A program made the position numbers and the translations under genes. A DNA stretch of 44,943 nt, from sequence record SRR20825006_1030; one strand, written 5' to 3'. This document shows positions 1 to 16,860 of this stretch, one piece after another. A model generated the notes under the pieces. It was given only the letters and a program-made list of their open reading frames with translations. It was not told the DNA's origin and made no database searches. Every line of letters starts with the position of its first letter. The first letter of the stretch is position 1.

Positions 1-1
1 T

Positions 2-427
2 AGTTTTGCTGAGTCAGTGCATAAAATTACACAAGAACAATTAAGACGTCATGGTCTACAGCCAAAAGTCATTGCTGATGTTATGAATCAGCGTTTAGAA
101 GGCAAAATCCTGCATAGTGATGTGCAAGAATTCGACTGGGTATGGTGTCAGAAACTCTTTGAAGCAGCTGGCACGACACCAAGATTTAAAATCCATGATG
201 CAACATTGCTCTTCAATCACAAAATCAATGACTCTCATGAGCCTTCATTAACACAAATCATGACCGAAACTTCTCTTTCAGATGGTCAATTGAGTTCCAT
301 CTTAAATCGCTACTCATTGCAGGCATGGGAAAGGCTAGACTGTGCTCCACACCGGGCGGCATGCGATGTACAGCATCTTGTTGAGATGTGGAAGCTGATT
401 ACAGAGCTTGAGACAAAAAATTTCTGA
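2..427 (+). CDS. DEDDh 3'-5' exonuclease family protein, 5'-truncated by the window edge
   Basis: Frame is open from base 2 (SFAESVHKIT, like the 'VHGIT' motif), has an FD motif and a C-terminal HRAACD (ExoIII HxAxxD). Confidence 0.7.
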   Translation, partial: SFAESVHKITQEQLRRHGLQPKVIADVMNQRLEGKILHSDVQEFDWVWCQKLFEAAGTTPRFKIHDATLLFNHKINDSHEPSLTQIMTETSLSDGQLSSILNRYSLQAWERLDCAPHRAACDVQHLVEMWKLITELETKNF

Positions 428-438
428 CTTGTTGAGAA

Positions 439-948
439 TCACTTGCTTCTCCTCTCTTCGCGGAGCACTTCAAAAGTCTTCTGATACCTTTGTAATGCTC
501 GCTCAAAATATGTGAGGTCGTGACCTTCCGGCTTGCTAGTAACGGCGACGTGCCACATCAGATGTGGAGGCCAATCATTGGGAATTACTTCTTTGAGTGC
601 CTTGCGGATACGCGCAAAGTCTTCGGGAGAATATTTGTGCTCCCTGGCAGTAACGTAAAGAAGATTGTAGTGAGGGAGTACATATCTGCTTTCTAATGGA
701 TCTTCTTCGAACACCCCTCGCCATTGTCCATCCGCTCGCTTCACGAAGTAGAGCGGAGCAACGGGCACCCCAGCGAATACGCATGCCGCACCAATGGCAT
801 GCATAGCTGGACCTATTGTCATAGCGGCTTTTGCTGGCTCTTTACCACAGGCAGCAGCATACATGCCGTAAGAAGACACGCGATTCGACAACACGCTATC
901 TTGGAACTTGTCCAATATTTCAAGTGCTATTTCCCGTGCAGTTGCCAT
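439..948 (-). CDS. hypothetical protein, 169 aa, cassette-like
   Basis: ATG-started ORF with a plausible soluble sequence; no family recognised. Confidence 0.7.
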   Translation of the reverse strand: MATAREIALEILDKFQDSVLSNRVSSYGMYAAACGKEPAKAAMTIGPAMHAIGAACVFAGVPVAPLYFVKRADGQWRGVFEEDPLESRYVLPHYNLLYVTAREHKYSPEDFARIRKALKEVIPNDWPPHLMWHVAVTSKPEGHDLTYFERALQRYQKTFEVLREERRSK

Positions 949-985
949 AGCGCTGCCTTATGTGTAATGCCCGACGCTTCTAATC

Positions 986-1029
986 ATACAACGCCTCAGC
1001 GGCCGGCTACGGTGACTTGTTAGCTTTCA
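986..1029 (-). repeat. degenerate, shortened integron attC-like site
   Basis: Minus strand after the stop reads TGAAAGCTAACAAGTCA...GCCGCTGAGGCGTTGTAT. The AGCTAAC inverse core is complementary to GTTAGCT upstream of the same gene (1518-1524). Confidence 0.55.
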
Positions 1030-1500
1030 TTTCGGCTCAATTAAAATCATGTGCTCATCAGCTCGTGGCCCTTTGGTACATTTCACAAGAATATTGAGAT
1101 TACCATTCATAAAATGCTGATTGATCGGGCAAGACTGAAAGATGTTTTTTATCGCTTCAGAGGTAGCACCACCATATTCCTCGGAAATAATTGCGCTCCA
1201 TAATCGCCCTGTAATATCCATCTTCTTGCCGTGCCAGTTCACAACAACAAACTTAAGGTTCTTAATATGGTCTGGGCCTGAGCTTTTGCTGTTAATCCAG
1301 AGCTTCACGTCCTCTTCGCGGTTATAGCACCCCCACAGGGATCCAAAGCCATCACTTGGTGGCGTGGTTGACTCCCTTACACACTGAAGCCTTTTAAGCA
1401 ACTTGGCCTTCTCAACAGAGACGCTGCCGAAGGATTCCGCAAAGGCTGGCTTGCAAAATAGAACTCCCAGAAATACAAATAAGTATGTAAGTTTCATCAA
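1027..1500 (-). CDS. exported hypothetical protein
   Basis: N-terminal signal peptide ending in AFA; AAGGAG RBS; several Cys residues. Confidence 0.75.
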   Translation of the reverse strand: MMKLTYLFVFLGVLFCKPAFAESFGSVSVEKAKLLKRLQCVRESTTPPSDGFGSLWGCYNREEDVKLWINSKSSGPDHIKNLKFVVVNWHGKKMDITGRLWSAIISEEYGGATSEAIKNIFQSCPINQHFMNGNLNILVKCTKGPRADEHMILIEPK

Positions 1501-1625
1501 CGACCGTCTCCTTTGACAGCTAACAGCACATATAATGGATCTGGGGAGCCATTAAGCAATTTTTTTGTTTGATAGGGATAAAGCCATTTCTCATTATGAA
1601 ACATGGTTTTACCTTAGTTCTTAAT

Positions 1626-1650
1626 GAACGAACTTGAACACTTATTGGGT
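1626..1650 (-). repeat. left half of an attC-like site
   Basis: ACCCAATAAGTGTTCAAGTTCGTTC just after the stop of 1657..2325 resembles an RYYYAAC-led attC start; no right half is seen. Confidence 0.4.
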
Positions 1651-1656
1651 GATGGT

Positions 1657-2325
1657 CTACACATAGTCATCGGAATTCATTGGTAGCTTTGAAAGCCCCA
1701 AGTCTTCACGCCATGCATTCAGTTCTTCGAAACATGACTCGCATAATAGTGCTGGACTTCCATCCTCTCTTTCAAGGAGAGTGATTTTCCCAGAAATAAA
1801 TCCAAATCGTTGTTTGCATTTGGCACAATCTGCTTTCACCTCAACCCCATCCAGGGCAGGCAATGACCTTCTATTGGATACCTTAAACAAGTTGCTAATC
1901 TTAATTTTTGCATCTGCGATGTCTTGATCACTCCAACCTTGAAGCTTGGTTTTTTTCTGGCCGATCATTTTTTTCCTGAAAACAAGGAAAGACCAAAAGT
2001 AAGCGATGGTAATGATATTTAGAACAACCCATACTGACTTTTCGCCCAAATGAACAGGAATTATTGGGTTGTATAAAATTGCAGCAGCGCCAAGCGGCGC
2101 AAGGAACAAAGGCTTACGATTTTCTAATTCCACAAAACCAATTGCAAGAGCCGAACCGCACAAAACCACTCGCAATAATTTATAGAACCAGTAATCCATC
2201 TCCAAGATTCCGAGCAAAACAAATGCGGTACTGATAGTTGCGGCAGTGAATATTACTCTTTGATTAGTCATTGGTAATTCACTCCGCAAAATGCCATTAT
2301 TAGATGACATTTTAGAACCCACCAC
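1657..2325 (-). CDS. membrane protein (DUF6804-like N-terminus) with a C-terminal CxxC...CxxC region; true start may be the internal MTNQ
   Basis: YWFYKLLRVVLC...LYNPIIPVHL...W pattern; CAKC and CESC. Confidence 0.65.
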   Translation of the reverse strand: MVGSKMSSNNGILRSELPMTNQRVIFTAATISTAFVLLGILEMDYWFYKLLRVVLCGSALAIGFVELENRKPLFLAPLGAAAILYNPIIPVHLGEKSVWVVLNIITIAYFWSFLVFRKKMIGQKKTKLQGWSDQDIADAKIKISNLFKVSNRRSLPALDGVEVKADCAKCKQRFGFISGKITLLEREDGSPALLCESCFEELNAWREDLGLSKLPMNSDDYV

Positions 2326-2998
2326 GAACTTGTGCGCCTAACCATGCGCCATACATAAAAACTGGGATAAAACCAAAAATCGCCGTAAGTGGAAACATAA
2401 TTAGCTGACCTAGACCTTCTCCAGCCATTTCTATACCCGTGACTATTAGAGCTGCTACCATCATTCCTAACCACGACATAACACCGCCGATTATGATTAA
2501 GCCTGTTGAGAACCAGAAACCAGGAATGAAATCTACTCTCCCCTTGTCTATACCGGGATTTATGGAATCAAGGATTCCGAGCACAAACATAAGTGCGATG
2601 CCACCGAGAACAAGTGTTTGTAATGATTGCAACTGACCTAAGACTGGTATAAGTGCCAGAACTATTGCGGCTAGAACAAGAACACCAACGAGTTTGAAAA
2701 ATGCCCCTGGAGCAACAACAATAAGCTGCCAAGGGAAACTCCATGCCGCATCTTCGGCGAAACCGAAGATTATAGGTGCGATGGTTAATATCATTACAGC
2801 CATCGCTACAACTTGGAGTACAGGCATTAAAAGCATGCTAAGGCAGCCCATATATCCAGTAGCACCTTCGTTCTTTTTCATAACCATGCCAACAATTATC
2901 ATTGGGATAAAAAACATGGCGAGGTACTCAAGGCCAGCAACGTATGTCTCCCAGTAGGTGAGAACCTTTAGGCCCGCAAGTACCGAATCCCAAAACAT
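2312..2998 (-). CDS. hypothetical integral membrane protein
   Basis: 228 aa, about 6-7 hydrophobic segments, AGGGG RBS. Confidence 0.75.
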   Translation of the reverse strand: MFWDSVLAGLKVLTYWETYVAGLEYLAMFFIPMIIVGMVMKKNEGATGYMGCLSMLLMPVLQVVAMAVMILTIAPIIFGFAEDAAWSFPWQLIVVAPGAFFKLVGVLVLAAIVLALIPVLGQLQSLQTLVLGGIALMFVLGILDSINPGIDKGRVDFIPGFWFSTGLIIIGGVMSWLGMMVAALIVTGIEMAGEGLGQLIMFPLTAIFGFIPVFMYGAWLGAQVRGGF

Positions 2999-3173
2999 GG
3001 TTATCCCCTTTTTGTCATGTTGACCTGTTCCCCACTTTCTAATTCACGACAAACTTAGTAATGTTCATCACTGAAAATAGAAATCGCCATTCTATATGCC
3101 GTTCTATTGGTTAGATTATGACCCTGACCCCGTATCAGGTCCAGCCACTTACTTATTCGCGCTATTCTGACTT

Positions 3174-3383
3174 TTGAGCTACGGACAATCGATGTTTATT
3201 CAAAGTCTTTTCGGCATCGCAACTCCAGCGATAAGATATTTGAGATCTGTGGTTGCCATTCTAGATCGGCAATATGATGTGAAGGCGCTTGGTAAAGATG
3301 CAAAAGGGAATATTCGTATTGGAATAGAGGCGCCTAAATCGGTTCCTGTTCAGCGAGAAGTAATCTACAACAGGATAAAATAA
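3174..3383 (+). pseudogene. degenerate CsrA-like fragment
   Basis: GNIRIGIEAPKSVPVQREVIYNRIK matches the CsrA C-terminal half; the MLILTR N-terminus is missing. Confidence 0.65.
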
Positions 3384-3548
3384 CAATCTTCAACGCTTTG
3401 AAGTCTCGGTTTAACCTTTTGCAATATACCAGCACGGACCCGATGATATACAGACTGATAGACTATAACCACAATTTTAATATGGTTTATTGTAACATAT
3501 TAGCTGGAATTAGCATCGAGAGTAATAAAAATAGCAAAGGATTCGCTT

Positions 3549-5597
3549 ATGGACTTTGAGGTAATAACCCTTGCAACCTACGGTACACTTTTCATCCTGT
3601 GGTCTGCGATACTGATACTTTATCTCTACAATGTACGTAAGGTTCGAGCACTCAGCCTGGCCGTCAGTGTTTTACTCTCGATATTGGCCATCGATGCCTT
3701 CAGAACCACATTCGAGTCAGCATATTTCGGTCTTTATTTTTCTTCGGTTTATGATTTCCTGCCGAGGGAGCTCTATGAGTTTCTCTCCAGACCTGAAGTC
3801 TTAATCCTGCCCAAAGCGCTTAATTTAGTAGCAGCGCTTGTCATCGTATTTCTACTCTTCAAGTTCTGGATTCCACGTGTTGTGCTTGAGCGCCGTGAAA
3901 TGCTTGATGCCATGTCTAAATCAAACCGGGAACTTGAGTTAATACGCTATTCACTGGAACACATTTCAGACAGCGTCTACTGGGTATCACCAGAAGGTCG
4001 GGTGATTGATGCGAATCAGGCAGCCTGCGAATACATGGGCTACACATTAGACGAGTTAAGACAGCTTCATGTTTATGATTTTGATCCAGACTTTACTAAA
4101 GCAATCTGGCCAAAACACTGGCAAGAACTCAAAGCCCAGGGCAGCAAACATATTGTTACGCGCCACGTCACAAAGTCTGGTAAATCAGTTCCCGTCGATA
4201 TTGTGGCCAATTATCTTCACTATGACGGTGAGGACTATAACTGTGCGATCGTAAGGGATATTAGTAAGGAACTGGAGAAAGACAATCTAATCTGGCAACA
4301 GGCCAATTTTGATGAAATGACAGGCCTACCCAATCGACGGTTGTTTATGGATAGACTGAATGAGGCTCTACTCACAGCACGTAGACACAAACTTCCCATC
4401 GCAGTGATGCTCATTGACATTGACCGGTTTAAGGAAATCAACGAGGTGATGGGGCCCGAAGTTGGAGACAAAACACTGGTTGAGATTAGTCAAAAGCTGA
4501 ATAAAACGGTCCGGGATAGTGATACTTTCGCCCGGTTATCGGGTGACGAATTTATTGCAATCATCAAGAACTATAACTCTACAGCTGATCTTCAGCTTAT
4601 TGCAGCCAGAATGTTCGATGTTATGAACGAACCACAACAGCTGGGTGAGTTAACCATGTTTCTCTCAGCCAGCATTGGTGTAACGCTTTATCCAAATGAT
4701 GCTCAAGATGGCAAAGAACTGATTCGCAATGCATATCAGGCCATGTACGATGCAAAAGACAGCGGCGGACGCAACCAATTACAGTTTTTTACCCCATCCA
4801 TGCATGAGCGAATGCAACAACGTGCCAGACTGGTGAGTGAAATGCGTAAGGCCATCGATGATGAGGCTTTTGAGCTACATTACCAGCCCATTGTAGATTT
4901 ACAGACGGGTAAGGTCGTTAAGGCTGAAGCATTAATTCGATGGAAGCACCCCGAAAAAGGACTTGTTTATCCTGGTGAATTCATTCCATTAGCAGAAGAA
5001 ACAGGCTTGGTGATACGTATTGGAGACTGGGTATTAAAGCAGACGCTTAATGACCTGCCAGGATTTAGAGAGCTACATGCTTCCTTCTCAGTCTCCATCA
5101 ATACTGCACCTGCTCACTACAAAGACCTTCATTGTATTTCTCGTTGGATGCAAAAAATCAGTGAGGCAAATCAGCCTGGAAGTGCGATTGTATTCGAGAT
5201 GACTGAACATAACTTGATGCCAGAACACTCTGACGATATAGAAGCAACCTTGGCTTCACTGCATGGTGCTGGAATTAGAGTTGCCTTGGATGATTTCGGC
5301 ACCGGTTATTCTTCCCTTGCTTACCTGAAACGCTACCGAATCGGTTTTGTAAAAATTGACAAGAGCTTTGTGGACAGCATAACAACAGATACACACAGCC
5401 ATGCTCTATGCGAGGCGATCATTGTCATGGCACACAAGCTTGATATGGAAGTGATTGCTGAGGGTGTGGAAACCAAAGAACAAATGGAAGTTTTAGCAGA
5501 TATTGGCTGTGACCATGGTCAGGGTTACTACTTTTCACGCCCAGTGCCGTTTGATAAGTTCATAACTCTTATTGGCTTCCCGTTGTCTTTAGAATAG
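3549..5597 (+). CDS. membrane PAS-GGDEF-EAL c-di-GMP protein
   Basis: N-terminal TM helices, PAS, DEMTGLPNR, SGDEF, EALIRW, DDFGTGYSS. Confidence 0.93.
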   Translation: MDFEVITLATYGTLFILWSAILILYLYNVRKVRALSLAVSVLLSILAIDAFRTTFESAYFGLYFSSVYDFLPRELYEFLSRPEVLILPKALNLVAALVIVFLLFKFWIPRVVLERREMLDAMSKSNRELELIRYSLEHISDSVYWVSPEGRVIDANQAACEYMGYTLDELRQLHVYDFDPDFTKAIWPKHWQELKAQGSKHIVTRHVTKSGKSVPVDIVANYLHYDGEDYNCAIVRDISKELEKDNLIWQQANFDEMTGLPNRRLFMDRLNEALLTARRHKLPIAVMLIDIDRFKEINEVMGPEVGDKTLVEISQKLNKTVRDSDTFARLSGDEFIAIIKNYNSTADLQLIAARMFDVMNEPQQLGELTMFLSASIGVTLYPNDAQDGKELIRNAYQAMYDAKDSGGRNQLQFFTPSMHERMQQRARLVSEMRKAIDDEAFELHYQPIVDLQTGKVVKAEALIRWKHPEKGLVYPGEFIPLAEETGLVIRIGDWVLKQTLNDLPGFRELHASFSVSINTAPAHYKDLHCISRWMQKISEANQPGSAIVFEMTEHNLMPEHSDDIEATLASLHGAGIRVALDDFGTGYSSLAYLKRYRIGFVKIDKSFVDSITTDTHSHALCEAIIVMAHKLDMEVIAEGVETKEQMEVLADIGCDHGQGYYFSRPVPFDKFITLIGFPLSLE

Positions 5598-5762
5598 CCA
5601 TCGATGTGCTAAACCGATTTTCATGCTTCTTTGATTGCTCCAATTCTCAAACGACACTGCTATGAATGGCACTTGCTAAAATCCTACTTCTGCCAGCCAC
5701 CCTATACAACGCGACATTTACTTTGGCTATCACTGTAATGATAGCCTTTGTCCAATGACTTG
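5592..5762 (-). pseudogene. relic 3' end and downstream flank of a diguanylate cyclase paralog
   Basis: Diverged copy of 9666-9840; encodes ITVIAKVNVALYRVAGRSRILASAIHSSVV* versus MSVIARADDAMYKAKASGRSRVLASAMDSRVV*. Confidence 0.8.
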
Positions 5763-5766
5763 GGGC

Positions 5767-7086
5767 TCATTCGACTTGTTGATATATTCTCTCTACAACC
5801 TCTACAACTTGCTCAGCCCCTTTTCTGATATTGATAATGGACTGACCTGCCTGAGCTGCCAAAGATACAGCCTCTTCAACACCATCAAGGCTACCTGACA
5901 TGCTGTGAATAACGGTTTGAGTATTGGACTGAACTCTAGAGATCATCTCAGAAATTTCGGATGTAGCCTGATGTGTTCTGTGAGCCAGTGTACGAACTTC
6001 ATCAGCAACGACAGCGAACCCTCTACCCTCAGACCCTGCTCGTGCAGCTTCGATTGCAGCATTTAAAGCCAGCAAATTAGTCTGTTCTGCTATATCGCTG
6101 ATTGTTTTTACGATCGAACTTATTTGATCGGTTACGTCATCAAGTTTACCTAGTTGTTCAGATGAATCAGAAACTTTTGCTGAAAGTGAATGCATTCTTT
6201 CTGTCGTATCGAAGATGATTTTCTCACCTTCGCTTGATTGCTCCAGAGTGTCACGCGATATTTCGTAGGCTGTTTGTGCTGCCTTCTTTTCGTTTTGAGC
6301 TTTCTCTACCTGTTCTGTTATGTCGCTAGCAAATTTAATGACTCGATATGGCTTCCCTTGATCATCAAGAACAGGATTATATGTGGCACCCAGCCACACG
6401 ACTCTTCCACTTTTAGTTAGTCTTTGATAGCTGCTATCGAAGAATTCGCCTTGGTTCAGCTTTTCCCAGAAGATCCTATATTCATCACTTTCCGCAAATT
6501 TAGCCTCACAGAAAATGCGATGATGTTTGCCCTGTACCTCTTCTAAAGAATACCCCATCAACTCAAGGAAGTTAGTGTTTGCGTCCCTGACCTTGCCTTC
6601 CATGTCGAACTCAATCACTGCCATCGAACGGTTTAATGCAGTGATAAGGTTATCTGCATTACGTGACATCTCAACACGTTGGGTGATGTCGTTAGCCGTC
6701 TTAATCACTCTTTCAAGTGATCCATCAGCTTTTCTTACAGGGAAGTAAGTTGCCTCTAGCCAGATGCTGGCTCCATTTTTGTGTTTGCGTTGGAACTGAC
6801 CACTGAATGTTTCGCCGGCTCTGAGTTTAGCCCAGAAATCTGCGTAGTCTTTGCTACGGACATAATTTTCATCACACAAAGTTTGATGGTGCTGGTTTAC
6901 CAGTTCATCAGTCGTGTAGCCAACAACCTTACTAAAGTTAGTGTTTACCGATAGGATGATGCCGCCCGGCGTAAACTCTATAATCGCAACAGACTTGTCA
7001 AAAGCCCTGAGCAAATCGTCCTTTTCATCTAATTGTTTCTTTGTTCTAGCGAGTTCATCTTTGACTATTCTGTATTTGCTGAACAT
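5767..7086 (-). CDS. soluble PAS-PAS methyl-accepting chemotaxis protein (BdlA-like)
   Basis: Two PAS/PAC repeats, [17 protein letters not shown]...[10 protein letters not shown] signalling motif, no TM segment. Confidence 0.92.
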
Positions 7087-7558
7087 TAACTTCCCCTAAT
7101 TAAAGACATTGCAACCGACTTGATAATTGTAGGATGCAATCATATAGTGAGCAATATAATTAATTAGAAAGAGCTTGTATATGTGCGAACCAATTCAACA
7201 TGATTTAGATGTGTGTCCATGTCCCGATCACAGTCATCAGCTCTTTAATTGACTTACTGCACTGGGTCAGTCTTTCCGATGCTTTCAGTAGCCCTCTGAA
7301 GCACGTCTCTTTTTTAAACTGGGATGAGAGAATCGGTGTTATACAACAACGATCAGCTGAAATTGGTTCAGCTATAACAGATAACAGTGTCTTTGACTGT
7401 CTTGATGCTCCACATATAGGTATATCCATGCAAAGATCGGGGGCACAGTCGACGGTAGTTATTATATGTATATGATTTTATATTCTGATTTATATGATAA
7501 TCAGGCTTTGAGGCAATCCCATTAAAAACGCCATGCGGTAATACTGGAGACAATTATT

Positions 7559-7753
7559 ATGCTCATACTTTCAAGACAGATCGGCAGCAGCATCGTTATC
7601 GGCGATGATATAAAAGTCTCAGTGTTAGGGATTAATGGCAAACAAGTCAGATTAGGTATTGAGGCACCCATCTCGGTTTCAGTTCACAGAAATGAGGTTT
7701 ATGAAAGAATTCAAAATGAACTCGAACTCAAAAAAATGAATACAAGGTCATAG
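7559..7753 (+). CDS. csrA: carbon storage regulator CsrA/RsmA family
   Basis: MLILSRQIG...VRLGIEAP...[17 protein letters not shown]. Confidence 0.92.
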
Positions 7754-7981
7754 TCTGCCTGTTATGTCTATCTGAGCTGGAAGCGGCACCTTAAAGTGAA
7801 GAAGATCACATTTCTCAATAGCTACTTGTTGGTCGCCCTAAAATTGATGATTTCTAATCACTCTGGCAAGTGATTCATCGGCATTTATTTTCTTACTATT
7901 ATTTCAATTGAAAAACTTTATGAGATGAGTAACGCTCAAAAAAGCTGACAATGTCATTGAATACTGAAAGGAATCACTACT

Positions 7982-9655
7982 ATGGATATTACTCAGTTAT
8001 TTAAAACACTTGATAATAAAGGACGTCTGATCAAAGCAGTATTGGTGCCTTTGCTGCTTATCCTGATGGGGTGTGTATTTATGCTCGTCTATTATACCGG
8101 CGGCATAAAATACGTTTATTCACATTCAATGTATATCCCAATTGTATTAGGTGCACTCATTTTTGGTGTTCGAGGAGGGATCTTGTTTGGACTCTTGGGT
8201 GGACTAATTCTTGGCCCTTTCATGCCTATTGATGTGGTGACCGGAGAAATGCAGAACACCATTAACTGGCTTTATCGAACTGGCTTTTTTGTCTTAATCG
8301 GTTTCATAGCAGGTCTTGCCAGTGACATCGTCGGAATTTATTTGAATAAACTGAAATGGATTTCACGACATGACGAATATACAGGATTGCCTAACCGCCA
8401 TGCATTGATTGAAGAATTGCCAAACTATGCTGCTAATACTCATCCACCGGAAATGAATATCTTACTTGTAGCCTCCGTTAATAACACTCGACAGTTGAAA
8501 ACTGCTTTTGGTATCGATGTCATTGATACAGCAATTGGACAAATCTCCGAACGCTATATGAAACGGCTAAAGGAAATGGGACATGAGTTTCATGTTTATC
8601 GAGCTGATGCTGGTTCAATCAGCACGCTGGTTACAAATACGCCATCACAAAAGCTAAAAACATTGCTCAAAGAGCTCGCTAAGATAGCAAAAAAGCCATT
8701 TGAGTTTCAGGGCATCCCCATCCATGTTGATTTCCGAATGGGTTTTGTACCATTCGATACTGCGTCGAATCCGCCCCACTCATACCTCCAATATGCAGAA
8801 TCAGCTATGAATCAGGCACATGAAACCCTGAAAGATTTTCTTGCCTACAGTAAAGACCTGGAGGGTCTCGTTAGAGAGAATATGTCACTTTTAGGTGAAC
8901 TAGTTGATGCGATTGAGCTAAATCAGCTTGCTTTACACTATCAGCCTAAAGTCGATAGTAAAACTGGAAAAGTAGTCGGTGTGGAGGCCCTGATGCGATG
9001 GCACCATCCTAATCGTGGCAATGTGCCGCCAGGCGTCTTTATTCCATGTGCTGAACAGAGCACATTAATTTTTGACATCACCACATTTGCTCTAGAGACC
9101 GCATTAAAGCAAATAGTGCGTTGGAATAAGCAAGGCATTGATTTACCCATAGCCGTAAATCTATCCCCGCTCAACCTGGGTGAACCTGGTTTTGCTGACA
9201 TTGTGATAGCGCTTTTAAGTCGATATGGTGTGGATGGTCACAAGCTTGAACTTGAAGTGACAGAAGGCGCATTAATGTTGGATATTGCCACATCAACAAA
9301 AGAGCTCAATAAACTAGCAGAGAAAGGCGTCATTATTTCAGTGGATGATTTTGGTACAGGCTATTCCTCGTTACAGTATCTGGATAAGTTACCAATCAGC
9401 ACGATTAAAATCGATCAGTCTTTTATACGCCAGCTCTCTGAGGGCGAGAGTTCTTCCCATATTGTTGAAGCAACAATCAGTCTGGCACATCGCTTAAAAA
9501 TGAATGTTGTAGCTGAAGGTGTCGAAGATCAAGACACATTTGACTACCTTTTAAAGAATGAATGTGATTCTGTACAAGGCTACCTGTTTTCAAAACCACT
9601 AACTGAAACAGAGTTTCAAGACTGGCTTAAACAGTATGAAAGTAACCGTAGCTAG
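7982..9655 (+). CDS. membrane c-di-GMP phosphodiesterase (degenerate GGDEF plus EAL)
   Basis: TM N-terminus, DEYTGLPNR with no GGDEF motif (RADAGSI instead), intact EALMRW, DDFGTGYSS and EGVE. Confidence 0.9.
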   Translation: MDITQLFKTLDNKGRLIKAVLVPLLLILMGCVFMLVYYTGGIKYVYSHSMYIPIVLGALIFGVRGGILFGLLGGLILGPFMPIDVVTGEMQNTINWLYRTGFFVLIGFIAGLASDIVGIYLNKLKWISRHDEYTGLPNRHALIEELPNYAANTHPPEMNILLVASVNNTRQLKTAFGIDVIDTAIGQISERYMKRLKEMGHEFHVYRADAGSISTLVTNTPSQKLKTLLKELAKIAKKPFEFQGIPIHVDFRMGFVPFDTASNPPHSYLQYAESAMNQAHETLKDFLAYSKDLEGLVRENMSLLGELVDAIELNQLALHYQPKVDSKTGKVVGVEALMRWHHPNRGNVPPGVFIPCAEQSTLIFDITTFALETALKQIVRWNKQGIDLPIAVNLSPLNLGEPGFADIVIALLSRYGVDGHKLELEVTEGALMLDIATSTKELNKLAEKGVIISVDDFGTGYSSLQYLDKLPISTIKIDQSFIRQLSEGESSSHIVEATISLAHRLKMNVVAEGVEDQDTFDYLLKNECDSVQGYLFSKPLTETEFQDWLKQYESNRS

Positions 9656-9720
9656 GATGAGATTTGAATAGCCATCGATTTGCTAAACAGGTTCTGATGC
9701 TCCTTTGAATACTCCAGCTC

Positions 9721-11067
9721 TCAAACAACTCTGCTATCCATGGCACTTGCTAGAACCCTACTTCGACCAGAGGCTTTAGCCTTATACATAGCGTCATCTG
9801 CTCTGGCTATCACCGACATGCTCTCTTTATCGCATGTCTTGAGCTGAGTAATACCTGCACTAAAACTGCACTGAATAAGCTTCCCTGCGTCAGAATAAAA
9901 ATCTCGTTTACACCAATTTTTCAGAAGTAGTTCTATCACTGATTTTCCTTGTTTCACCGTTGTATTGGGCATAATAACGAGAAACTCCTCACCACCAAAA
10001 CGACCAAAAACATCAGTCTCTCTCAGCCGATTTTTGAGTTCATGTGCAAACTGTACCAGCAGTTTATCTCCAGTCAGATGGCCATGGTTATCATTCACAT
10101 CCTTAAACTTATCCAGGTCAATAATAACGACCGTAATGTCACTTGGATGGCGGTGGAACTGCTTGATTAACTGTGAAAGACGTCCAAGCAACACCCGTCT
10201 ATTGGGCAAAAGTGTCAATTCATCGAGTTCAGCCTGCTGTTTGAGTTTTACTTCAAGTAATTTTTGCTTATCAATGTCATTGATAATGCCGTACCAACTC
10301 ACTCCGTCCTCATTTTTTTCCGGAATGGCGTGAATCTGTAACCATTTGAAGACATCCTGAAAATGTACCCTGAAATCAACAAGCCAGGGCTGCATATCGA
10401 TTAACGAATGATTGAAACTGACAAGCAAGCGCCGAAGATCCTCTTTATGCACAATAACCAAAGCGAGATTGGGTTCTTGCTGAATCTTCGACAATGGAAC
10501 GTCAAAAAATACACCGGCCTGCTCACTGATAAACGGGCAAGCCAAATGGTGATGGTTATCAATATTGAGACAAAATATGACGCCGGGAATGGCCTTAGAA
10601 AGTTTATTGAGTATGAGCTCGGCCTTGTAACGCTCGGTCACATCAATATGAGTCCCAGCCAGCCATTCAGGTTTGCCATCGGCAGTTTTAGTAACGATTT
10701 TGCCACTGTCCTGAACAATCACCCAGTGACCCTGTTTGTGACGCAGTCTTACCAGGCACTCGTAACGCTCCAATTGGCCATCGAAATGCTTGTCAAAAAT
10801 GGCATTGGATTGCTCCAAATCAGCTGGGTGAACAAGATCCACCCACGTTTGAAATGACAATGGTTCTAGTTCTTCAACTTTATAGCCTACAATTTCAGCC
10901 CACCGCTCATTTATGATGATCTCACCTGATTGGACATTCCATTCCCAAGTTGCCGCATTTGTTCCATCAATGATTGCTTCAAGACGTGATTGATATGAAA
11001 TATAGGCATCTTTTTTCAAGCTCTGTCCTTTTCGATAATCACACTGAAATTTTGTGATGTAAATCAC
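9721..11067 (-). CDS. PAS-domain diguanylate cyclase
   Basis: PAS_3-type domains, RETD I-site, RFGGEEF. Confidence 0.92.
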   Translation of the reverse strand: MIYITKFQCDYRKGQSLKKDAYISYQSRLEAIIDGTNAATWEWNVQSGEIIINERWAEIVGYKVEELEPLSFQTWVDLVHPADLEQSNAIFDKHFDGQLERYECLVRLRHKQGHWVIVQDSGKIVTKTADGKPEWLAGTHIDVTERYKAELILNKLSKAIPGVIFCLNIDNHHHLACPFISEQAGVFFDVPLSKIQQEPNLALVIVHKEDLRRLLVSFNHSLIDMQPWLVDFRVHFQDVFKWLQIHAIPEKNEDGVSWYGIINDIDKQKLLEVKLKQQAELDELTLLPNRRVLLGRLSQLIKQFHRHPSDITVVIIDLDKFKDVNDNHGHLTGDKLLVQFAHELKNRLRETDVFGRFGGEEFLVIMPNTTVKQGKSVIELLLKNWCKRDFYSDAGKLIQCSFSAGITQLKTCDKESMSVIARADDAMYKAKASGRSRVLASAMDSRVV

Positions 11068-11406
11068 AAATTATCACGTCCTGAGACAGACTTGTAGCGT
11101 CATACTTGTTTATTTAATGGGTTGGAGTTGATTGGCTCCAGATTGGGGATAGTATCGAGCCTTGACTGGATTGAAAAGACAATAATTTTAAATCGGCTCA
11201 GTCAATCAATAAAGCGTGAATCAAACAGGAAAAGCATCAACTTACCCTTGTGAGGAATTATCTATTTTATGAGCTTATATGTACGTAATTTTTATTTTAT
11301 GCCTTTATTTTATTTATTATATGCCATTAACATTCCTTTAACACATTGATTAATAATGTGGTGAATATAAATTAGACGTCTTTACTTACAGAAGCACGCA
11401 TTAAAG

Positions 11407-11781
11407 TTGTTAAGGATTCCATTTTTTAGTCTTATTCTCATAGGGGCAATGCCAACATGGGCAGATAACTTGACTGGACCACAAAAGAACGCCGTCAGAT
11501 CAGCAAAACAATATCTTAGTTTTACAGGATTTTCTCGCAACGGTCTGATAGACCAGCTTTCATCCGATTATGGCGATGGATACAGCGTTAATGACGCCAC
11601 GGTTGCTGTCGACAGTCTGAGCGTTGACTGGAGCAAACAAGCGGTCAAATCGGCGGAACAATATCTTAGTATCCAGGGCTTTTCCTGTAAGGGCCTAATT
11701 GAACAGCTTTCATCAAGCTATGGCGACAAGTACACAGTTGAACAAGCAACGTATGGTGCACAGCAAGCAGGGGCCTGCTAA
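11407..11781 (+). CDS. Ltp-family (host cell surface-exposed lipoprotein repeat) exported protein
   Basis: Signal peptide and two tandem repeats A(V)xSAxQYL...FSxxGLIxQLSSxYGDxY typical of Ltp domains. Confidence 0.8.
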   Translation: MLRIPFFSLILIGAMPTWADNLTGPQKNAVRSAKQYLSFTGFSRNGLIDQLSSDYGDGYSVNDATVAVDSLSVDWSKQAVKSAEQYLSIQGFSCKGLIEQLSSSYGDKYTVEQATYGAQQAGAC

Positions 11782-11889
11782 TTCAAGCCTTATCGAATAG
11801 AGTGGCTTCATTTTTATTTCATAATGAGCCGATCGAAATCCCAGTTGGTGGGTAATACCGGATAAGCTGATGTGTTATTTCATCTCGTT

Positions 11890-12027
11890 CAAGGTCACTT
11901 GTTGAGTTATTTCATCAGGTCCACGGTCACTTGATGGTTATAAATTCTCGGTCACTGGATGGTGTAGTAGGTGCCTAAGTGCTTGATTTATTGTGTTTCT
12001 CACGGTCACTAAATCAGTTACGCGACA
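11890..12027 (-). mobile_element. putative Tn7-like (TnsB DDE) transposon end; element extends leftward
   Basis: Minus strand begins TGTCGCG, followed by four related repeats (TAACTGATTTAGTGACCG, ACACCATCCAGTGACCG, TAACCATCAAGTGACCG, TAACTCAACAAGTGACCT). Confidence 0.7.
11976..11988 (-). promoter_or_regulatory. IHF binding site
   Basis: AATCAAGCACTTA matches WATCAANNNNTTR exactly and lies between the terminal repeat and the second repeat. Confidence 0.65.
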
Positions 12028-12033
12028 TAAACG

Positions 12034-12062
12034 AAAAAAGCCGGCTCAAAGTCGGCTTTTTT
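12034..12062. terminator. bidirectional intrinsic terminator-like hairpin
   Basis: AAAAAAGCCGGC-TCAAA-GTCGGCTTTTTT. Confidence 0.75.
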
Positions 12063-12278
12063 GTATGTCATGCATTAAATTGCACCAGTCAAGAGAGGTT
12101 CAGTTCATATGGCATCTGATGAGCAAAAAAAGCATAACGACAACAAAAACAACAAACCAGACAATAACCGGACGGGAAGAAGCGACTATAACAGACCCAT
12201 TGGTGACAATGTAAAAGGTGAAGTAAACACAACGAACAGCACTGGGCCAAGAGTGCCAGATAATGCAAAAAAATAAGC

Positions 12279-12674
12279 ATGAAACTAGAAGATATTAGAG
12301 AAGCCTATTACTCACACACCGCAACCGCGAGTCGAGTAGCACGTCAAATATCTTTTGCAGGAATTGCCGTGATATGGATATTCAAAACAGATAAATTGGA
12401 TTCAATCGCTCTTCCTGAAACGCTTATAAGCGCTGCTATTGCGTTGTTGCTATCGCTTTCATTCGACCTACTTCAATACATTTATGCATCAGCTGCTTGG
12501 GGTATTTTTCACCGATATAATGAGAGAAAAAAAGGCGTAGATTATTCTGGTGAAGTTTATGCACCTATGTTTATTAATTGGCCAAGTAATATTTTTTTCT
12601 GGGGAAAGCTGACTTTCTTGATGATTGGATATTTTTTTCTACTTATTTATGGGCTAAGTTCAATTAAATCGTAA
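12279..12674 (+). CDS. hypothetical membrane protein
   Basis: 131-aa ORF with about 3 hydrophobic segments. Confidence 0.7.
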   Translation: MKLEDIREAYYSHTATASRVARQISFAGIAVIWIFKTDKLDSIALPETLISAAIALLLSLSFDLLQYIYASAAWGIFHRYNERKKGVDYSGEVYAPMFINWPSNIFFWGKLTFLMIGYFFLLIYGLSSIKS

Positions 12675-12790
12675 AACTAAATACAGCACTAAAATCATAT
12701 AAGGAAAAGATGAGGTTGCTGAGTTGCATATGGGAAATAAAAACAACGATATCAACGAAGACGGCGTTATAGAACATCTCCGATCACACC

Positions 12791-12857
12791 AAAAAGGGGA
12801 CAGATTTATTTTTCCTAGAACTATTCCCCAACTACAAAATAGATCTGTCCCCTTTTT
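12791..12857. repeat. 22-bp inverted repeat pair (GGGGACAGAT motif)
   Basis: AAAAAGGGGACAGATTTATTTT ... AAAATAGATCTGTCCCCTTTTT, one mismatch, 23-nt spacer. Confidence 0.85.
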
Positions 12858-12884
12858 TAACCAGAACTGCATCAGAAATCAATA

Positions 12885-13373
12885 TTGAAAGTCTACTTTT
12901 TAAAACACATTTTTAATAAGGGAATGGAGCAGCATAAGATGGAACTAATAATTGGTATCACTGGCCTGGTACTGGGCTTACTCTCTGTCGTCGCAAGTTT
13001 CTATTACGGCAACAGAAAGAAAAGACTCATCAACAAGATGGAGAAATATCAGAACAGTATCGATCAAGTAGAAAAATACTCCGGTGATGATGCGGTCAAA
13101 ATGATGGTCCATGACTCCTTCAACAATTTCTCATATGCCGTTGGCTTGTCACTATTAGCGTATTCTGTTGAGGGTATTACAAATAAATTATTCAGCTTTA
13201 GTGGAGAAGCAGAATTTTTTATCAGCCAACTTGCTTTGGGTGTGTATTTTGCTGCTGGAATTCTCTTAATTCAAACATATGCCACGCTGAGTAATGCATA
13301 CCGTCCTAATGAGTCGATTGCAGCACTGCAAAAAAAAGTCGATAAACTAAAAGATGAGATTAGTAAACACTAA
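12885..13373 (+). CDS. hypothetical membrane protein (start probably an internal ATG)
   Basis: ORF with 3 TM segments and a coiled-coil-like C-terminus. Confidence 0.65.
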   Translation: MKVYFLKHIFNKGMEQHKMELIIGITGLVLGLLSVVASFYYGNRKKRLINKMEKYQNSIDQVEKYSGDDAVKMMVHDSFNNFSYAVGLSLLAYSVEGITNKLFSFSGEAEFFISQLALGVYFAAGILLIQTYATLSNAYRPNESIAALQKKVDKLKDEISKH

Positions 13374-13434
13374 GATTCAGGTAACTTGAAAAACGAGCAG
13401 ACCAAGTTTACTGCTGCCTAGATACCATTAATGT

Positions 13435-13455
13435 AAAAAAATCTGTCCCCTTTTT
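13435..13455 (+). repeat. third copy of the ATCTGTCCCCTTTTT motif
   Basis: 15-bp exact direct repeat (13441-13455) of 12843-12857. Confidence 0.8.
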
Positions 13456-13546
13456 CGCTTATGGATCTCCACCTGCAAAGGCGGAAGATCTGTCTAAACC
13501 CGTGTCCGGAATTAGTTGACCACTACAATGAGCCAAATGCAGACAT

Positions 13547-14608
13547 TTAGTTAGATTTTTCCATCACCAGATATGGGTTGAAGCGTTCATGAATATCAAA
13601 TCCATATTTCGCATTTATAGCCCACTTAATTATATTCCGTGCCAATAACTGATTATCATATAACTCTGCGTATGTACTAACGCGGTCTTTGAAAACTCTC
13701 CCATGAGCTGCTCGCTCATTACGCAATTTTTCTAGCTTTATCATTTTTTCAATTGCGCTCTCATCTCGCTCAGAGAATGGGTTTTGTACTACCTGCTCTA
13801 AGTCAATTCCTTCAGATTCAAATTTTCTAAGGATCTTATCTTGAGATGAAGCCATCATTCCGCCATATATCGCCTCTAAAACTTTATAAAACCCATGAAG
13901 CGCACCTTCGAGCTTTACTGCTTCAGAAATGGTCAATGGTTTTTCATTCTCTGAGCTCAAGTAGTCCTTCGGATAACCTATTTCTTCAATCACACAAAGA
14001 ACGGCCTCTCTGTAAAACATTGACGCATAAAGCAGCACTTCATCGCCAACTATCAAGTCAGCAATTTCAAAAACTCGCAAATTGACCTCGAGCCCGAAGG
14101 ACCGCAAATACCAAATAGAATCATCTATAGGATATTCAGGTATACCCGTATGCTTAGTTACATAGATACGCAAATCTGAGCTACTTAGGAGTCGATCATC
14201 TTCTATTTTAGACTCAGCAATCTCTATTACACCGACATTATCAGAGTCAGTTGCATCTCGTAAGATAGCCATCGAAGCATTCAAGGCATCCAGTACATTG
14301 AATCTATTGATAACTTTCGAATTAGGAATCAAGACATATCGAGAGTTCTGATAGCTCAGCCCTACAATCTCAAGTGTCGAGTCATTTTTCGATCTGTCTA
14401 AAAGGCTAATCGAAGAACCGTTAAATTTCCCATCAGGCCTTTCAAGTATCACGGGCTTCAAACTAAAATTGTTATAGTTTCTACAACAGCACAAATAATC
14501 AGGGAAGACGGTTATGTGCGGTTGGTCATAGCATTGAAGCTTTTCAATTTCTCCTTCACTTAACTCAAAAATGAACTCTGCGGGTAAACCAAGAATTAAG
14601 TAGTCCAT
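13547..14608 (-). CDS. hypothetical protein with a HEPN/MauJ-like C-terminus
   Basis: FYKVLE and LRNERAAHG (Rx5H) motifs. Confidence 0.6.
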   Translation of the reverse strand: MDYLILGLPAEFIFELSEGEIEKLQCYDQPHITVFPDYLCCCRNYNNFSLKPVILERPDGKFNGSSISLLDRSKNDSTLEIVGLSYQNSRYVLIPNSKVINRFNVLDALNASMAILRDATDSDNVGVIEIAESKIEDDRLLSSSDLRIYVTKHTGIPEYPIDDSIWYLRSFGLEVNLRVFEIADLIVGDEVLLYASMFYREAVLCVIEEIGYPKDYLSSENEKPLTISEAVKLEGALHGFYKVLEAIYGGMMASSQDKILRKFESEGIDLEQVVQNPFSERDESAIEKMIKLEKLRNERAAHGRVFKDRVSTYAELYDNQLLARNIIKWAINAKYGFDIHERFNPYLVMEKSN

Positions 14609-14849
14609 TTCCTTTCCCTGACAATGAAATATTTATTATCAAAGCAATGAATATTTTCTCCCTAGAGGCTAACGGGATCATGCTCTTCTACTCATAAATA
14701 ACTGCACTATAAACTACTGCAGTCCACTTCAATCAACCTATCCTCATAAGAGGTTTAGCAGCAGTTAAAACATACTTGGCTTTCTTCAAATCAAAGTGTT
14801 CAGGGACGATTGATTATTTCAAAACCCCAAATTTTAGTTTTGAGACGGA

Positions 14850-15044
14850 TTATTTCTTACGACGCCCAGCCCTGTTAAACGCAGAGTAAAGCTGGTAAAG
14901 AATATACGGAGTGATAGCCAATATCACTGCTTCTGTACCAGTCATTTTTTCACCTGCCAGTACAAGAATAATGATCAGCAGAAATCCGACAGCCAACAGC
15001 TTGAGTAGCTTGATTGACTCTTTCGCTATAACCTTCTTCTGCAT
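14850..15044 (-). CDS. small membrane protein
   Basis: 64 aa, two hydrophobic segments, GAAGGAAG RBS. Confidence 0.55.
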   Translation of the reverse strand: MQKKVIAKESIKLLKLLAVGFLLIIILVLAGEKMTGTEAVILAITPYILYQLYSAFNRAGRRKK

Positions 15045-15308
15045 TTTGCTTCCTTCTCTAAAAATTCAACAGTTCTGAGAGGACTCAATCACCCCAACGG
15101 GTAATCTACTCCTATACTTGGTGCCCTATCAATGGATTAAGCCAGCCAATCCGATAATCATTCGGTGATTAAAATTCAGAGGCGGTATCTGCCAAGCATC
15201 ATTAGCCAATGCCGCGGCATGACTGCCTATGAAAATTATCCCCAATAACGTACCCTAACTTCCCTAAAATCATATCGACCGGCGATATGAGATGATTCAG
15301 GAAGGTAA

Positions 15309-15659
15309 ATGAAACAAATCACCGTAGAAACTAACCCAAGCGAAGAGAAACTAAAGAAATTAGGCGTCAATCATTGGCCGACATGGCAGAAAGAAGTCTC
15401 TGTTTTCCCCTGGAGTTTCATCACCACTGAGTATGCCTATATCCTTGAAGGGGAATGTGTGATGACACCTGAAGATGGTGGTCCAGCGGTGACATTCAAA
15501 GCGGGTGATTTGGTGATTTTCCCGAATGGTTTCAAAGGCACCTGGGAAGTAACAAAGCCATTCAAAAAACGCTTTAAACACGTCGATGGCAATTTGGCAA
15601 AATGCTTCTTGTGCCGTGTAAAAATTCTGGTCAATCGTATCAAGTCACTGTTTGGCTAA
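15309..15659 (+). CDS. cupin superfamily protein (Cupin_3/DUF861-like)
   Basis: WPTWQKEVSVFPW...EYAYILEGE...GDLVIFPNGFKGTW. Confidence 0.85.
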   Translation: MKQITVETNPSEEKLKKLGVNHWPTWQKEVSVFPWSFITTEYAYILEGECVMTPEDGGPAVTFKAGDLVIFPNGFKGTWEVTKPFKKRFKHVDGNLAKCFLCRVKILVNRIKSLFG

Positions 15660-15698
15660 TCGACTTTTTGTGTCTAACTAATATTAACGAGAGAGAAA

Positions 15699-15989
15699 AT
15701 GAGCGAAAACGCCCCTGCTGAAAAAACATTCCAAGAACGTTGTGATGAGTTTATTACTCTTGCTAACCAGCAACATGCAGAAACCGAAGCAGAAAATGTG
15801 AATTCTGCAATACTCTTTTCTGCCGCACGTTTCAGTGTATTTAGCACTGCACCTCAGTTTGATGAGGCTGAACAGTTAAAAGAAGAAAAACAAAAAATCA
15901 TTGAGTATTTTACTCAGCGTTTTGCAGAAATGATGGCGACTAACCTCGACGAATATATTGATCGCTTTGATGAGTACAACCCGAAGTAA
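15699..15989 (+). CDS. DUF3144-family protein
   Basis: FQERCDEFITLAN...SAARF...NLDEY pattern. Confidence 0.75.
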   Translation: MSENAPAEKTFQERCDEFITLANQQHAETEAENVNSAILFSAARFSVFSTAPQFDEAEQLKEEKQKIIEYFTQRFAEMMATNLDEYIDRFDEYNPK

Positions 15990-16000
15990 GTTGAAGTAAG

Positions 16001-16089
16001 GTAGGTTGGGCTGAGGGACGAAGCCCAACAATTCCAACCTTTTTAAACAAAAAACCACCGTTGGGCTTGATAAATTCAGCCCAACCGAC
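16001..16089. repeat. GTAG-type REP doublet (REPIN)
   Basis: GTAGGTTGGGCTGAGGGACGAAGCCCAAC plus inverted GTTGGGCTTGATAAATTCAGCCCAACCGAC. Confidence 0.9.
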
Positions 16090-16115
16090 ATTCGATGATT
16101 TCACAAGGATTGTGA

Positions 16116-16649
16116 TTGATGCGTTATCGACGTGCTGATGTGGCAGGTGCCACTTATTTCTTTACCGTCAATCTTCTTGATCGACAACAAACACTATTAA
16201 CCGATCATATTTCCCTGCTGCGTCGCTGCATTCGAACCGTAAAACATCGTCACCCATTTAAAATCGATGCCATGGTGGTACTGCCCGACCATTTGCATGC
16301 CATCTGGACTTTACCGGATGCTGATGCCGATTTTTCCAAACGCTGGATGTTAATCAAATCATCGTTTTCACGATCACTACCCAAGACCGAAAATCTCAAA
16401 CCAAGCCGTGTTACAAAGCGTGAACGTGGAATCTGGCAGCGCCGGTTCTGGGAACACCTTATTCGTAATGAAGTGGATTATGAGCGCCATGTGGATTACA
16501 TCCACTATAATCCGGTCAAGCATGGCTATGTGGACAAAGCGGTCGACTGGCCCTTTTCAAGCATCCATCGGTATATTAAAGATCGATATGTAGGCCCAGA
16601 CTGGGGTGTTATTGACTCGATTGATGACCTGTCGGTTGGGGAAAGGTGA
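16116..16649 (+). CDS. REP-associated tyrosine transposase (RAYT/TnpA-REP, HUH Y1)
   Basis: GATYFFTV, PDHLHAIW (HUH), WQRRFWEHLIR, YIHYNPVKHG; flanked by REPs. Confidence 0.95.
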   Translation: MMRYRRADVAGATYFFTVNLLDRQQTLLTDHISLLRRCIRTVKHRHPFKIDAMVVLPDHLHAIWTLPDADADFSKRWMLIKSSFSRSLPKTENLKPSRVTKRERGIWQRRFWEHLIRNEVDYERHVDYIHYNPVKHGYVDKAVDWPFSSIHRYIKDRYVGPDWGVIDSIDDLSVGER

Positions 16650-16652
16650 TTT

Positions 16653-16681
16653 GTTGGGCTACCTTCGTCAGCCCAACCTAC
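16653..16681 (-). repeat. REP copy
   Basis: GTTGGGCTACCTTCGTCAGCCCAACCTAC. Confidence 0.9.
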
Positions 16682-16860
16682 GTTTGATGCTTGCCCATGG
16701 ATTGTGATTGATGTGCGTGATCAACGTGTTGAAGCAATTCAGGTAGATAATTCGTTCAACTCCAGACGCTGTTCAATGAGCGCTTGACGCCATCATAAAT
16801 AGGGGAACATGATGATTGAGGTTGTTTACTACCGATGGAAATCATCAGGGAGCGCTAAAT

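Follow-up and report, generated by a model that had tools for sequence, protein, structure and literature searches.

The stretch of DNA analysed here (44,943 nucleotides, sequence record SRR20825006_1030; referred to at its full length as the window) carries, about 12 kb from its first base, an unannotated cluster of short direct repeats of some 140 bp. This locus raises the question of whether the cluster marks the boundary of a mobile element and, if so, of which kind and at which chromosomal site. The reading that we favor, with a probability of roughly 0.85 on the strength of sequence comparison, is that positions 11889–12027 form the left end of a Tn7-family transposon in the nrdB attachment site, i.e., between the nrdB stop codon and its terminator, with the right end (outside the window) lying against nrdB. 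Since neither nrdB nor an opposite (right) end was found in the window, and no tnsA/B/C, tniQ, cas, or integrase genes were found among the ORFs scanned in it, the pairing with nrdB, the right end, and the tns genes are inferred from other species (related genomes are designated below by G numbers). That this particular copy is intact has about an even chance.

Architecture of the putative left end

The features that make up the putative end are the following (offsets are counted from the terminus inward):

12021–12027, minus strand: transposon terminus TGTCGCG, with 12027 as the last base of the element
12000–12020, minus strand: predicted TnsB-type binding repeat L1; core AGTGACC at 12004–12010, offset 18–24; 29.0 bits
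11976–11988, minus strand: IHF consensus AATCAAGCACTTA (predicted site), offset 40–52, in the 33-bp gap between L1 and L2
11946–11966, minus strand: predicted binding repeat L2; core at 11950–11956; 24.0 bits
11921–11941, minus strand: predicted binding repeat L3; core at 11925–11931, offset 97–103 (shared with a site in G802); 23.5 bits
11889–11909, minus strand: predicted binding repeat L4; core at 11893–11899, offset 129–135 (shared with a site in G802); 27.2 bits
12028–12032, no strand: TAAAC, right-hand copy of a presumed 5-bp target duplication, read as the nrdB stop codon TAA plus AC

Read on the minus strand, positions 12027 down to 12000 are TGTCGCGTAACTGATTTAGTGACCGTGA. This 28-nt terminus is the sole match in the window when up to three mismatches are allowed, and was matched in none of 100 shuffles. 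The four 21-nt repeats behind it (from L4 to L1) are direct, with spacings of 32, 25, and 54, and all four share an invariant GGTCACT on the plus strand (i.e., AGTGACC on the minus strand). A position-weight scan of the 44.9 kb with a 12-site matrix scored these four sites at 23.5–29 bits and the next match at 13.6, and no second site cluster or second end emerged from position-weight scans and the terminus search over the same 44.9 kb. Another TGTCGCG on the minus strand, at 5716, was rejected as a second end because it has no sites behind it.

The repeats L4 and L3 are situated inside a 32-nt tandem duplication (11868–11941). At this tandem repeat, a loose end at 11899 was observed in one low-depth contig of X23.

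Such a cluster might have arisen by chance, or might represent plasmid-type iterons or operators without relation to transposition, and one of its components is indeed not rare: the IHF consensus WATCAANNNNTTR, perfectly matched at 11976–11988, has five matches in the window vs. a shuffle mean of 2.66. The repeats themselves speak against this explanation, as AGTGACC occurs seven times in the window when both strands are counted (vs. a shuffle mean of 3.63), and four of these seven copies fall on one strand within 118 bp. So do the uniqueness of the terminus in the window and the presence of homologous ends at the same chromosomal site in three other genomes, and we consider a chance cluster or a set of iterons extremely improbable.

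Directly beyond the terminus, TAAAC is visible as a single copy in the window. The nrdB gene of G793 ends with GGGAC TAA AC GAAAAGCC, and TAAAC is compatible with a 5-bp target duplication that would comprise the nrdB stop codon and two further nucleotides. The first-pass annotation, made from the letters of the window, had described a TGTCGCG terminus, four AGTGACC-core repeats, and an IHF consensus between repeats 1 and 2, all of which were confirmed in the sequence, and had named TAAAC as a candidate duplication, which fits the composition of stop codon plus 2 nt when compared with G793.

The same end family in related genomes

In a family-wide pattern search of 83 genomes, the window's type of terminus was found in three (G802, G791, and G797). 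The right end of G802 (TGTCGCGTAACTGATTCAGTGACC, identical to the window terminus at 24 of 25 positions) begins at the nrdB stop codon, 4 nt past the last sense codon, and its two sites abut each other. A tnsA gene located 450 bp further in encodes a protein with 47% identity to the TnsA of a sister element in G760 (described below). The left end of G802 is located 54 kb away and has four sites with the same motif as in the window, the offset of the L1 core from the terminus being identical. CTAAT, which holds the nrdB stop codon, flanks both ends, an nrdB-type terminator follows the left end, and a site-matrix scan revealed only these two site clusters in 60 kb.

The same left end is carried by G791, where the inner 1524 nt are 98.4% identical to G802. 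Since this identity stops exactly at the terminus and the flank beyond it then differs from that of G802 (GATTT and then a right end that belongs to another Tn7-like element), the TGT terminus can be regarded as the true mobile boundary. As GATTT also precedes the nrdB-proximal end of G791, the comparison of both genomes provides direct evidence for a mobile boundary with a 5-bp duplication. These genomes bear out the earlier assignment of the cluster to a Tn7-family end, since ends of this family occur there together with tnsA, an opposite end that matches, and 5-bp duplications.

The classic layout of lambda-like att sites likewise pairs arm-type direct repeats with an IHF site. The cluster might in this regard be an attL/attR junction of a tyrosine-recombinase island, with the direct repeats as arm-type integrase sites and IHF as the bending factor, and the neighboring Ltp-like gene (see below) indeed matches phage superinfection-exclusion families. 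Nevertheless, no integrase was found among the ORFs scanned, ends of this family form inverted pairs in G802 and G791, with 5-bp duplications and tnsA, and the identity between these two genomes ends precisely at the TGT terminus, so that an att junction appears very improbable.

The relatives that carry the window's end family look to have decayed or composite tns sets. Two abutting sites make up the right end in G797 as in G802, but in G797 this relic is all that is left of an element after nrdB and the next 12 kb contain no tns gene, while no tnsB was found at the right end of G802 (where tnsA is present). The only TnsB-like gene in the G802 element encodes a protein of 674 aa (TnsB′) that is 25–29% identical to the TnsB of G760 and nearest to the TnsB of Tn6677 (2e-42). 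Since this gene sits in a module by the left end (including a TniQ′ of 318 aa) and searches revealed no internal right end for that module, TnsB′ is at most a candidate for the transposase that acts on the AGTGACC sites.

The module in question is a divergent tnsA′-tnsB′-tnsC′-tniQ′ set that occurs next to the left end, and reads toward it, in G802 (L079 10079–14773) and G791 (G791:C1:1815177–1817557); this layout is opposite to that of Tn7. The nrdB locus of G791 as a whole (G791:C1:1811832–1892800; L074, L096) is a tandem array of ~81 kb, which contains a truncated TGTCGCG right end, a tnsA-tnsB-tnsC-tniQ (681 aa) operon 9–15 kb in, the tnsA′B′C′Q′ module, the left end, GATTT, and the right end of another Tn7-like element.

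A sister element in G760

The G760 genome was reached with the window's monomeric isocitrate dehydrogenase as a probe (the G760 protein being 91% identical). Its element displays the order nrdA, nrdB, right end, tnsA, tnsB, tnsC, TniQ, cargo, and left end, and the only complete transposase module seen beside nrdB is that of this sister end family. The TGT right end, with two abutting repeats, is located 10 nt after the nrdB stop codon, and the inverted left end ~44 kb further, with TGATT repeated at both ends. Beyond the left end follow a hairpin like that at 12034–12062 of the window and, 2.7 kb later, a block homologous to the window from 14786 onward.

The G760 tnsB gene encodes rve and Mu-transposase C domains, tnsC is of the TniB type, and TniQ has 755 aa including an HTH domain. 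Its TnsB is closest to those of type I-F3 CASTs (PseCAST, 2.4e-92; Tn6677, 8.5e-82), followed by ShCAST (1.7e-33) and Tn7 (8.7e-22). No cas genes were found in the G760 element among ORFs of at least 100 aa in its first 20 kb (L038) and of at least 150 aa in the rest, nor among the ORFs scanned in the G802 element. For two genomes with ends of the TGTAG family (G793 and G789), inverted-repeat, regex, and terminator searches did not find the left ends.

Use of the nrdB site

The DNA behind nrdB was read in 30 loci, out of 61 relatives searched. Half of these sites (15/30) are empty, with nrdB followed directly by a hairpin, while six carry a TGTAG-type end resembling that of G760, one a TGTCAT-type end, and four the TGTCGCG terminus, the remaining four being unclear. 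Between about a third and a half of the sampled related species have an occupied nrdB site, in many cases with tandem or decayed elements, and the empty site that the first-pass annotation had proposed to look for in related strains is common among them.

Ends starting with TGTCGCG directly after the nrdB stop codon were found in G802, G797, G791, G787, and G812. As read from the loci, the insertion offset after the conserved GGGAY of nrdB is 4–6 nt for the TGTCGCG type vs. 13–15 nt for the TGTAG type, so that at least two end families use this site with family-specific offsets. If TAAAC in the window is indeed the stop codon TAA plus AC, it would fit the 4–6 nt class. The 5-bp duplications at the site are CTAAT in G802, GATTT in G791, TGATT in G760, and ATAAA in G788. 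Insertion directly downstream of nrdB is seen as such in the relatives and indicated by synteny for the window, for which a site- and orientation-specific insertion beside a conserved gene is likewise indicated by synteny only.

The first-pass annotation had noted that no known attachment gene is visible next to the end and had supposed that targeting may be unusual. This supposition does not hold, because the window contains the far (left) end, so that the attachment gene is expected beyond the other end, and because the gene found there by synteny, nrdB, is an already published Tn7-like attachment site (described in parts of Correa et al. 2024, NAR, PMC11014353).

In G787 (L071), G812 (L064), and G791 (L070), the nrdB stop codon is immediately followed by TGTCGCG(TAAC), beyond which the DNA bears no relation to the AGTGACC sites. 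These nrdB-proximal termini are either truncated right ends or members of a third end family that shares the terminal 7–11 nt.

An IHF-type site at a fixed offset in left ends

Five left ends were anchored at their termini and scanned with WATCARNNNNTTR, the IHF consensus used by Walker et al., which yielded the following IHF-type sites:

Window: offset 40–52, AATCAAGCACTTA, 0 mismatches
G802 and G791 (one lineage): offset 40–52, TATCAATGGGTTA, 0 mismatches
G760: offset 39–51, TATCAATTGGTTA, 0 mismatches
G788: offset 39–51, TAACAGTGGCTTG, 1 mismatch to WATCARNNNNTTR

All five left ends, which represent four lineages and two end families, thus have an IHF-type site on the terminus-inward strand, between sites 1 and 2, while none of the three right ends scanned (G802, G760, and G797) has one on that strand. 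The IHF motif keeps its position although the transposase-site sequences differ between the two end families, which argues for a function. These comparisons support the IHF site, at which binding is predicted from the consensus, as a conserved and position-fixed feature of the left ends, and they extend the original observation of an IHF site between transposase repeats to an offset that is conserved in 5/5 left ends.

A comparable arrangement has been described for the type I-F CAST VchCAST, the left end of which has a perfect IHF consensus between its two terminal TnsB sites, and in which both IHF and the IHF site are needed for efficient transposition (excerpts of Walker et al. 2023, PMC10201428). 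According to the same excerpts, 20 I-F CASTs share the left-end IHF site, which has no counterpart in the right end. Moreover, a cryo-EM structure, as outlined in part of a preprint (bioRxiv 10.64898/2026.07.09.737429), comprises one IHF dimer and four TnsB subunits, the DNA being bent by 180 degrees so that LE2 comes to lie on TnsB. With regard to nrdB-targeting elements that lack CRISPR, no paper on an IHF site came up among those listed by the literature searches, and the word IHF does not occur in the main text of PMC11014353.

The terminator and the right-hand flank

Two features to the right of the end connect the window to nrdB:

12034–12062, plus strand: hairpin terminator with U run, by synteny the nrdB terminator that the insertion would have moved away from nrdB
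14786–16683, plus strand: conserved chromosomal block (cupin, DUF3144, and REP-associated tyrosine transposase), found in relatives 1–5 kb downstream of nrdB or, at occupied sites, after the element

When folded, 12028–12072 forms a hairpin of 13 pairs with a U run behind it (–16.9 kcal/mol, z = –4.5; none of 200 shuffles was as good), although a simple consensus terminator scan did not flag the hairpin at 12034–12062. The fold bears out an earlier remark that the insertion lies next to a terminator. A like hairpin is located directly 3′ of nrdB in the 15 empty sites and also follows the left ends of G760, G802, and G788. Since this type of hairpin recurs at many loci of the relatives' genomes, it does not by itself identify nrdB. 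However, nrdB and a homolog of the block are found on one contig and in the same orientation in at least 12 relatives (G806, G760, G789, G792, G784, G801, G815, G803, G800, G811, G809, and G793), and 12034–12062 is therefore best read as the nrdB terminator. The block also follows the left end in G802 and G788.

When the first 20 kb of the window were compared with 101 relatives of G760, nucleotide conservation started at ~14786–14806 and ran rightward, with only paralog-level matches left of ~14.8 kb. Because this left part has no nucleotide-level counterpart, the whole of 1–14.8 kb can be considered non-core DNA, and the end at 12027 sits 2.8 kb inside it.

Four ORFs (~55, 131, 162, and 353 aa; 12109–14608), none with a Pfam, NCBIfam, or PADLOC match, occupy the variable gap that separates the terminator from the core block in the window. 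The corresponding gap in G760 contains a reverse transcriptase and an AAA_21 ATPase that look like a defense system (L040:8066–10358). Within the same gap of the window, a stretch of 67 nt (13461–13527) is 94–97% identical in G810, G787, and G816, in surroundings that are not conserved. This stretch may be a REP-like element or a small RNA, and Rfam gave no family anywhere in the window, this stretch included.

Further to the right, the REP-associated tyrosine transposase of the block (16116–16649; NF047646, 3.9e-61) has a homolog 1–1.5 kb after the nrdB terminator in several relatives, the surrounding block being rearranged in G798 and G806. An AAA ATPase at 23619–25238 is weakly like the anti-phage IetA/IteA (PADLOC IetA, 2.2e-20; NCBIfam IteA, 55 bits vs. 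a cut-off of 510). At 31191–35158, a DabA/DabB inorganic-carbon transporter pair is located beside a LysR regulator and the monomeric isocitrate dehydrogenase, which is an ordinary chromosomal context.

The visible interior and the state of the element

The window is a complete contig, as a public sequencing run contains one with exactly 44,943 bp that matches it without differences over the 20 kb compared. At least 12 kb of the presumed element is visible, and it runs off the window at base 1:

1–12020, no strand: element interior, with a DEDDh-like fragment, hypotheticals, DUF6804, and the genes below
3549–5597: PAS-GGDEF-EAL gene
5767–7086, minus strand: MCP gene, PAS-type chemoreceptor
7982–9655: GGDEF-EAL gene
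9721–11067, minus strand: PAS-GGDEF gene
11407–11781: Ltp-like lipoprotein gene

The 5′-open ORF at 1–427 corresponds to the C-terminal part of a DEDDh-exonuclease-like protein (PADLOC PDLC01247, 3.5e-6). A second copy of bases 1–404, ~85% identical, is present on a 721-nt contig from the same sequencing run as the window, and this copy may explain why the assembly stopped at base 1.

In a seawater metagenome, the end and the neighboring gene are present at 85–95% identity. One contig of a seawater metagenome run (X2) joins window position 5573 to 14806 across 1322 other letters, and in at least one relative the PAS-GGDEF-EAL gene is consequently much closer to the core block. This joint fits a smaller related element, or could mean that 1–5597 is not cargo. 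Another X2 joint connects 11785 to 11882, the shorter side of which measures 148 letters; if this is the right-hand side, the contig would cover at least 11882–12029, i.e., 2 nt past the terminus, which is a weak hint at best. The X2 depth is low between 12007 and 13340, and no conclusion is drawn from stretches without coverage; the small-share runs X3–X20 were left aside.

The metagenomic identity of 85–95% suggests maintenance and bears on the question of whether the left end, even if genuine, belongs to a relic that has lost or scrambled its right end and/or tns genes and would be inert unless a related element supplied the proteins in trans. The relatives lend this alternative some weight, as their nrdB locus is a graveyard of Tn7-like pieces: G797 retains only its two-site right-end relic, G787, G812, and G791 only the first 7–11 nt of the terminus, G802 has no tnsB at its right end, the locus of G791 is a tandem array, and the left ends of G793 and G789 were not found. 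Degradation has likewise been described for the nrdB elements of A. baumannii (parts of PMC11014353). In the window, on the other hand, the terminus, the IHF consensus, and the four sites with their invariant cores are intact, and no decay is visible. We consider a relic possible but rather doubtful.

A model for insertion at nrdB

If the cluster is indeed the left end of a Tn7-family transposon at nrdB, its insertion may be envisaged as follows. A TnsB-type DDE transposase, as inferred from the family, would bind the four AGTGACC-core repeats, while host IHF would bind at offset 40–52 and sharply bend the DNA between repeats 1 and 2. With the DNA bent in this way, as in the type I-F3 CAST VchCAST, the inner TnsB protomers would come within reach of the terminal one. 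TnsA and TnsB would cut at the TGT terminus, and insertion at a fixed distance would be directed by TnsC and by a selector of the TniQ/TnsD type that recognizes the 3′ end of nrdB. The 5-bp duplication left behind would here be TAAAC (the stop codon and two further nucleotides), and the 12 kb in view would then be cargo, with c-di-GMP and chemotaxis signaling genes and the Ltp-like lipoprotein.

Both nrdB as an attachment site and the IHF site in I-F CAST left ends are already known, and what is added here is a further example with both. An unannotated 140-bp repeat cluster can in this way be mapped as a transposon boundary, and, if the main reading is true, the contig would start with 12 kb of mobile cargo at a known hot spot. 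The core of the first-pass annotation, i.e., a Tn7-like end with an IHF site, proved right in light of the pairing in G802 and G791 and of the five left ends, and current models are not overturned. Moreover, the presence of the IHF site at the same offset in CRISPR-less nrdB-targeting relatives suggests that the host-factor requirement is independent of CRISPR co-option, which it may predate.

A broader proposal, which we put forward tentatively and consider unlikely to hold in full, is that IHF-assisted folding of the left end could be an ancestral, position-locked trait (at ~40–52) of the whole I-F3-type branch of Tn7-like elements, including its protein-targeted, CRISPR-less members. As part of the same proposal, the AGTGACC ends would be moved by the atypical, compact tnsA′-tnsB′-tnsC′ set with its 318-aa TniQ′ (without evident DNA-binding domain), located beside the left end and reading toward it, and insertion at the nrdB stop codon would proceed via an undescribed selector.

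Comparison with known systems

Wider searches for the end were made in several collections. An exact-pattern scan of GTDB contigs gave two chance matches, both in ordinary coding sequence; the scan pattern fits the G802 right end (G802:C1:31061) exactly, yet this end was not returned, indicating that the collection does not cover every relative genome used here. The same kind of scan gave no match in viral contigs and 13 loci in JGI metagenomes, all unrelated to the end (seven copies of one GC-rich coding repeat, two cysQ/cysD upstream regions, two copies of one gene, and two singles). Distant blastn of 11780–12100 against a plasmid collection found no match.

Among known systems, the left end of phage Mu is alike in its DDE transposase superfamily and in having a host bending protein (HU) act between L1 and L2 (excerpts of PMC10201428). 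It differs from the present case, where there are no phage genes, TnsA is found in relatives, and integration is site-specific.

Tn7 at attTn7 (glmS, TnsD) resembles the present elements in its heteromeric TnsA/TnsB transposase, TnsC, and TniQ-family selector, as well as in inserting behind an essential gene to which the right end is proximal, in its 5-bp duplication, and in its asymmetric ends. The TGT-starting ends with asymmetric, direct sites of ~20 nt that are typical of the Tn7 family were found in the window (left end) and in G802 and G797 (right ends). The attachment gene is a different one, however, and the TnsB of G760 is much more distant from that of Tn7 (8.7e-22) than from those of the I-F3 CASTs. 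Furthermore, the left end of Tn7 is not known to have an IHF site.

The type I-F3 CASTs (VchCAST/Tn6677 and 19 homologs) are alike in their TGT terminus, 5-bp duplication, and right end facing the target (PMC10201428 and 10.64898/2026.07.09.737429, both in part). They also share the spaced TnsB sites in the left end and tight sites in the right end, with an IHF consensus between the first two left-end sites only (PMC10201428, in part), just as the window has this consensus between L1 and L2. In contrast, no cas gene or CRISPR array was found in the visible 12 kb of the element, no CRISPR-like array in window 1–16000, and no tniQ-cas8/5-cas7-cas6 operon with an array in window 1–16000 or among the ORFs scanned in G760 and G802. 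The window's left end moreover has four sites, and G760 uses a TnsD-like TniQ of 755 aa with an HTH domain and a fixed protein-coding target, nrdB.

The nrdB-targeting branch of Tn7-like elements (A. baumannii remnants, A. nosocomialis, and Guyparkeria sp.) is alike in its insertion just downstream of nrdB (sections of PMC11014353, restated in part of bioRxiv 10.1101/2025.07.27.667033), and many of the published copies are degraded (PMC11014353, in part), as in the relatives studied here. This branch, as defined by Correa et al. 2024, was found in other hosts and is likened to the present elements by its insertion site rather than by TniQ sequence. In contrast to that branch, at least two end families share the nrdB site in the genomes described here, each with its own insertion offset.
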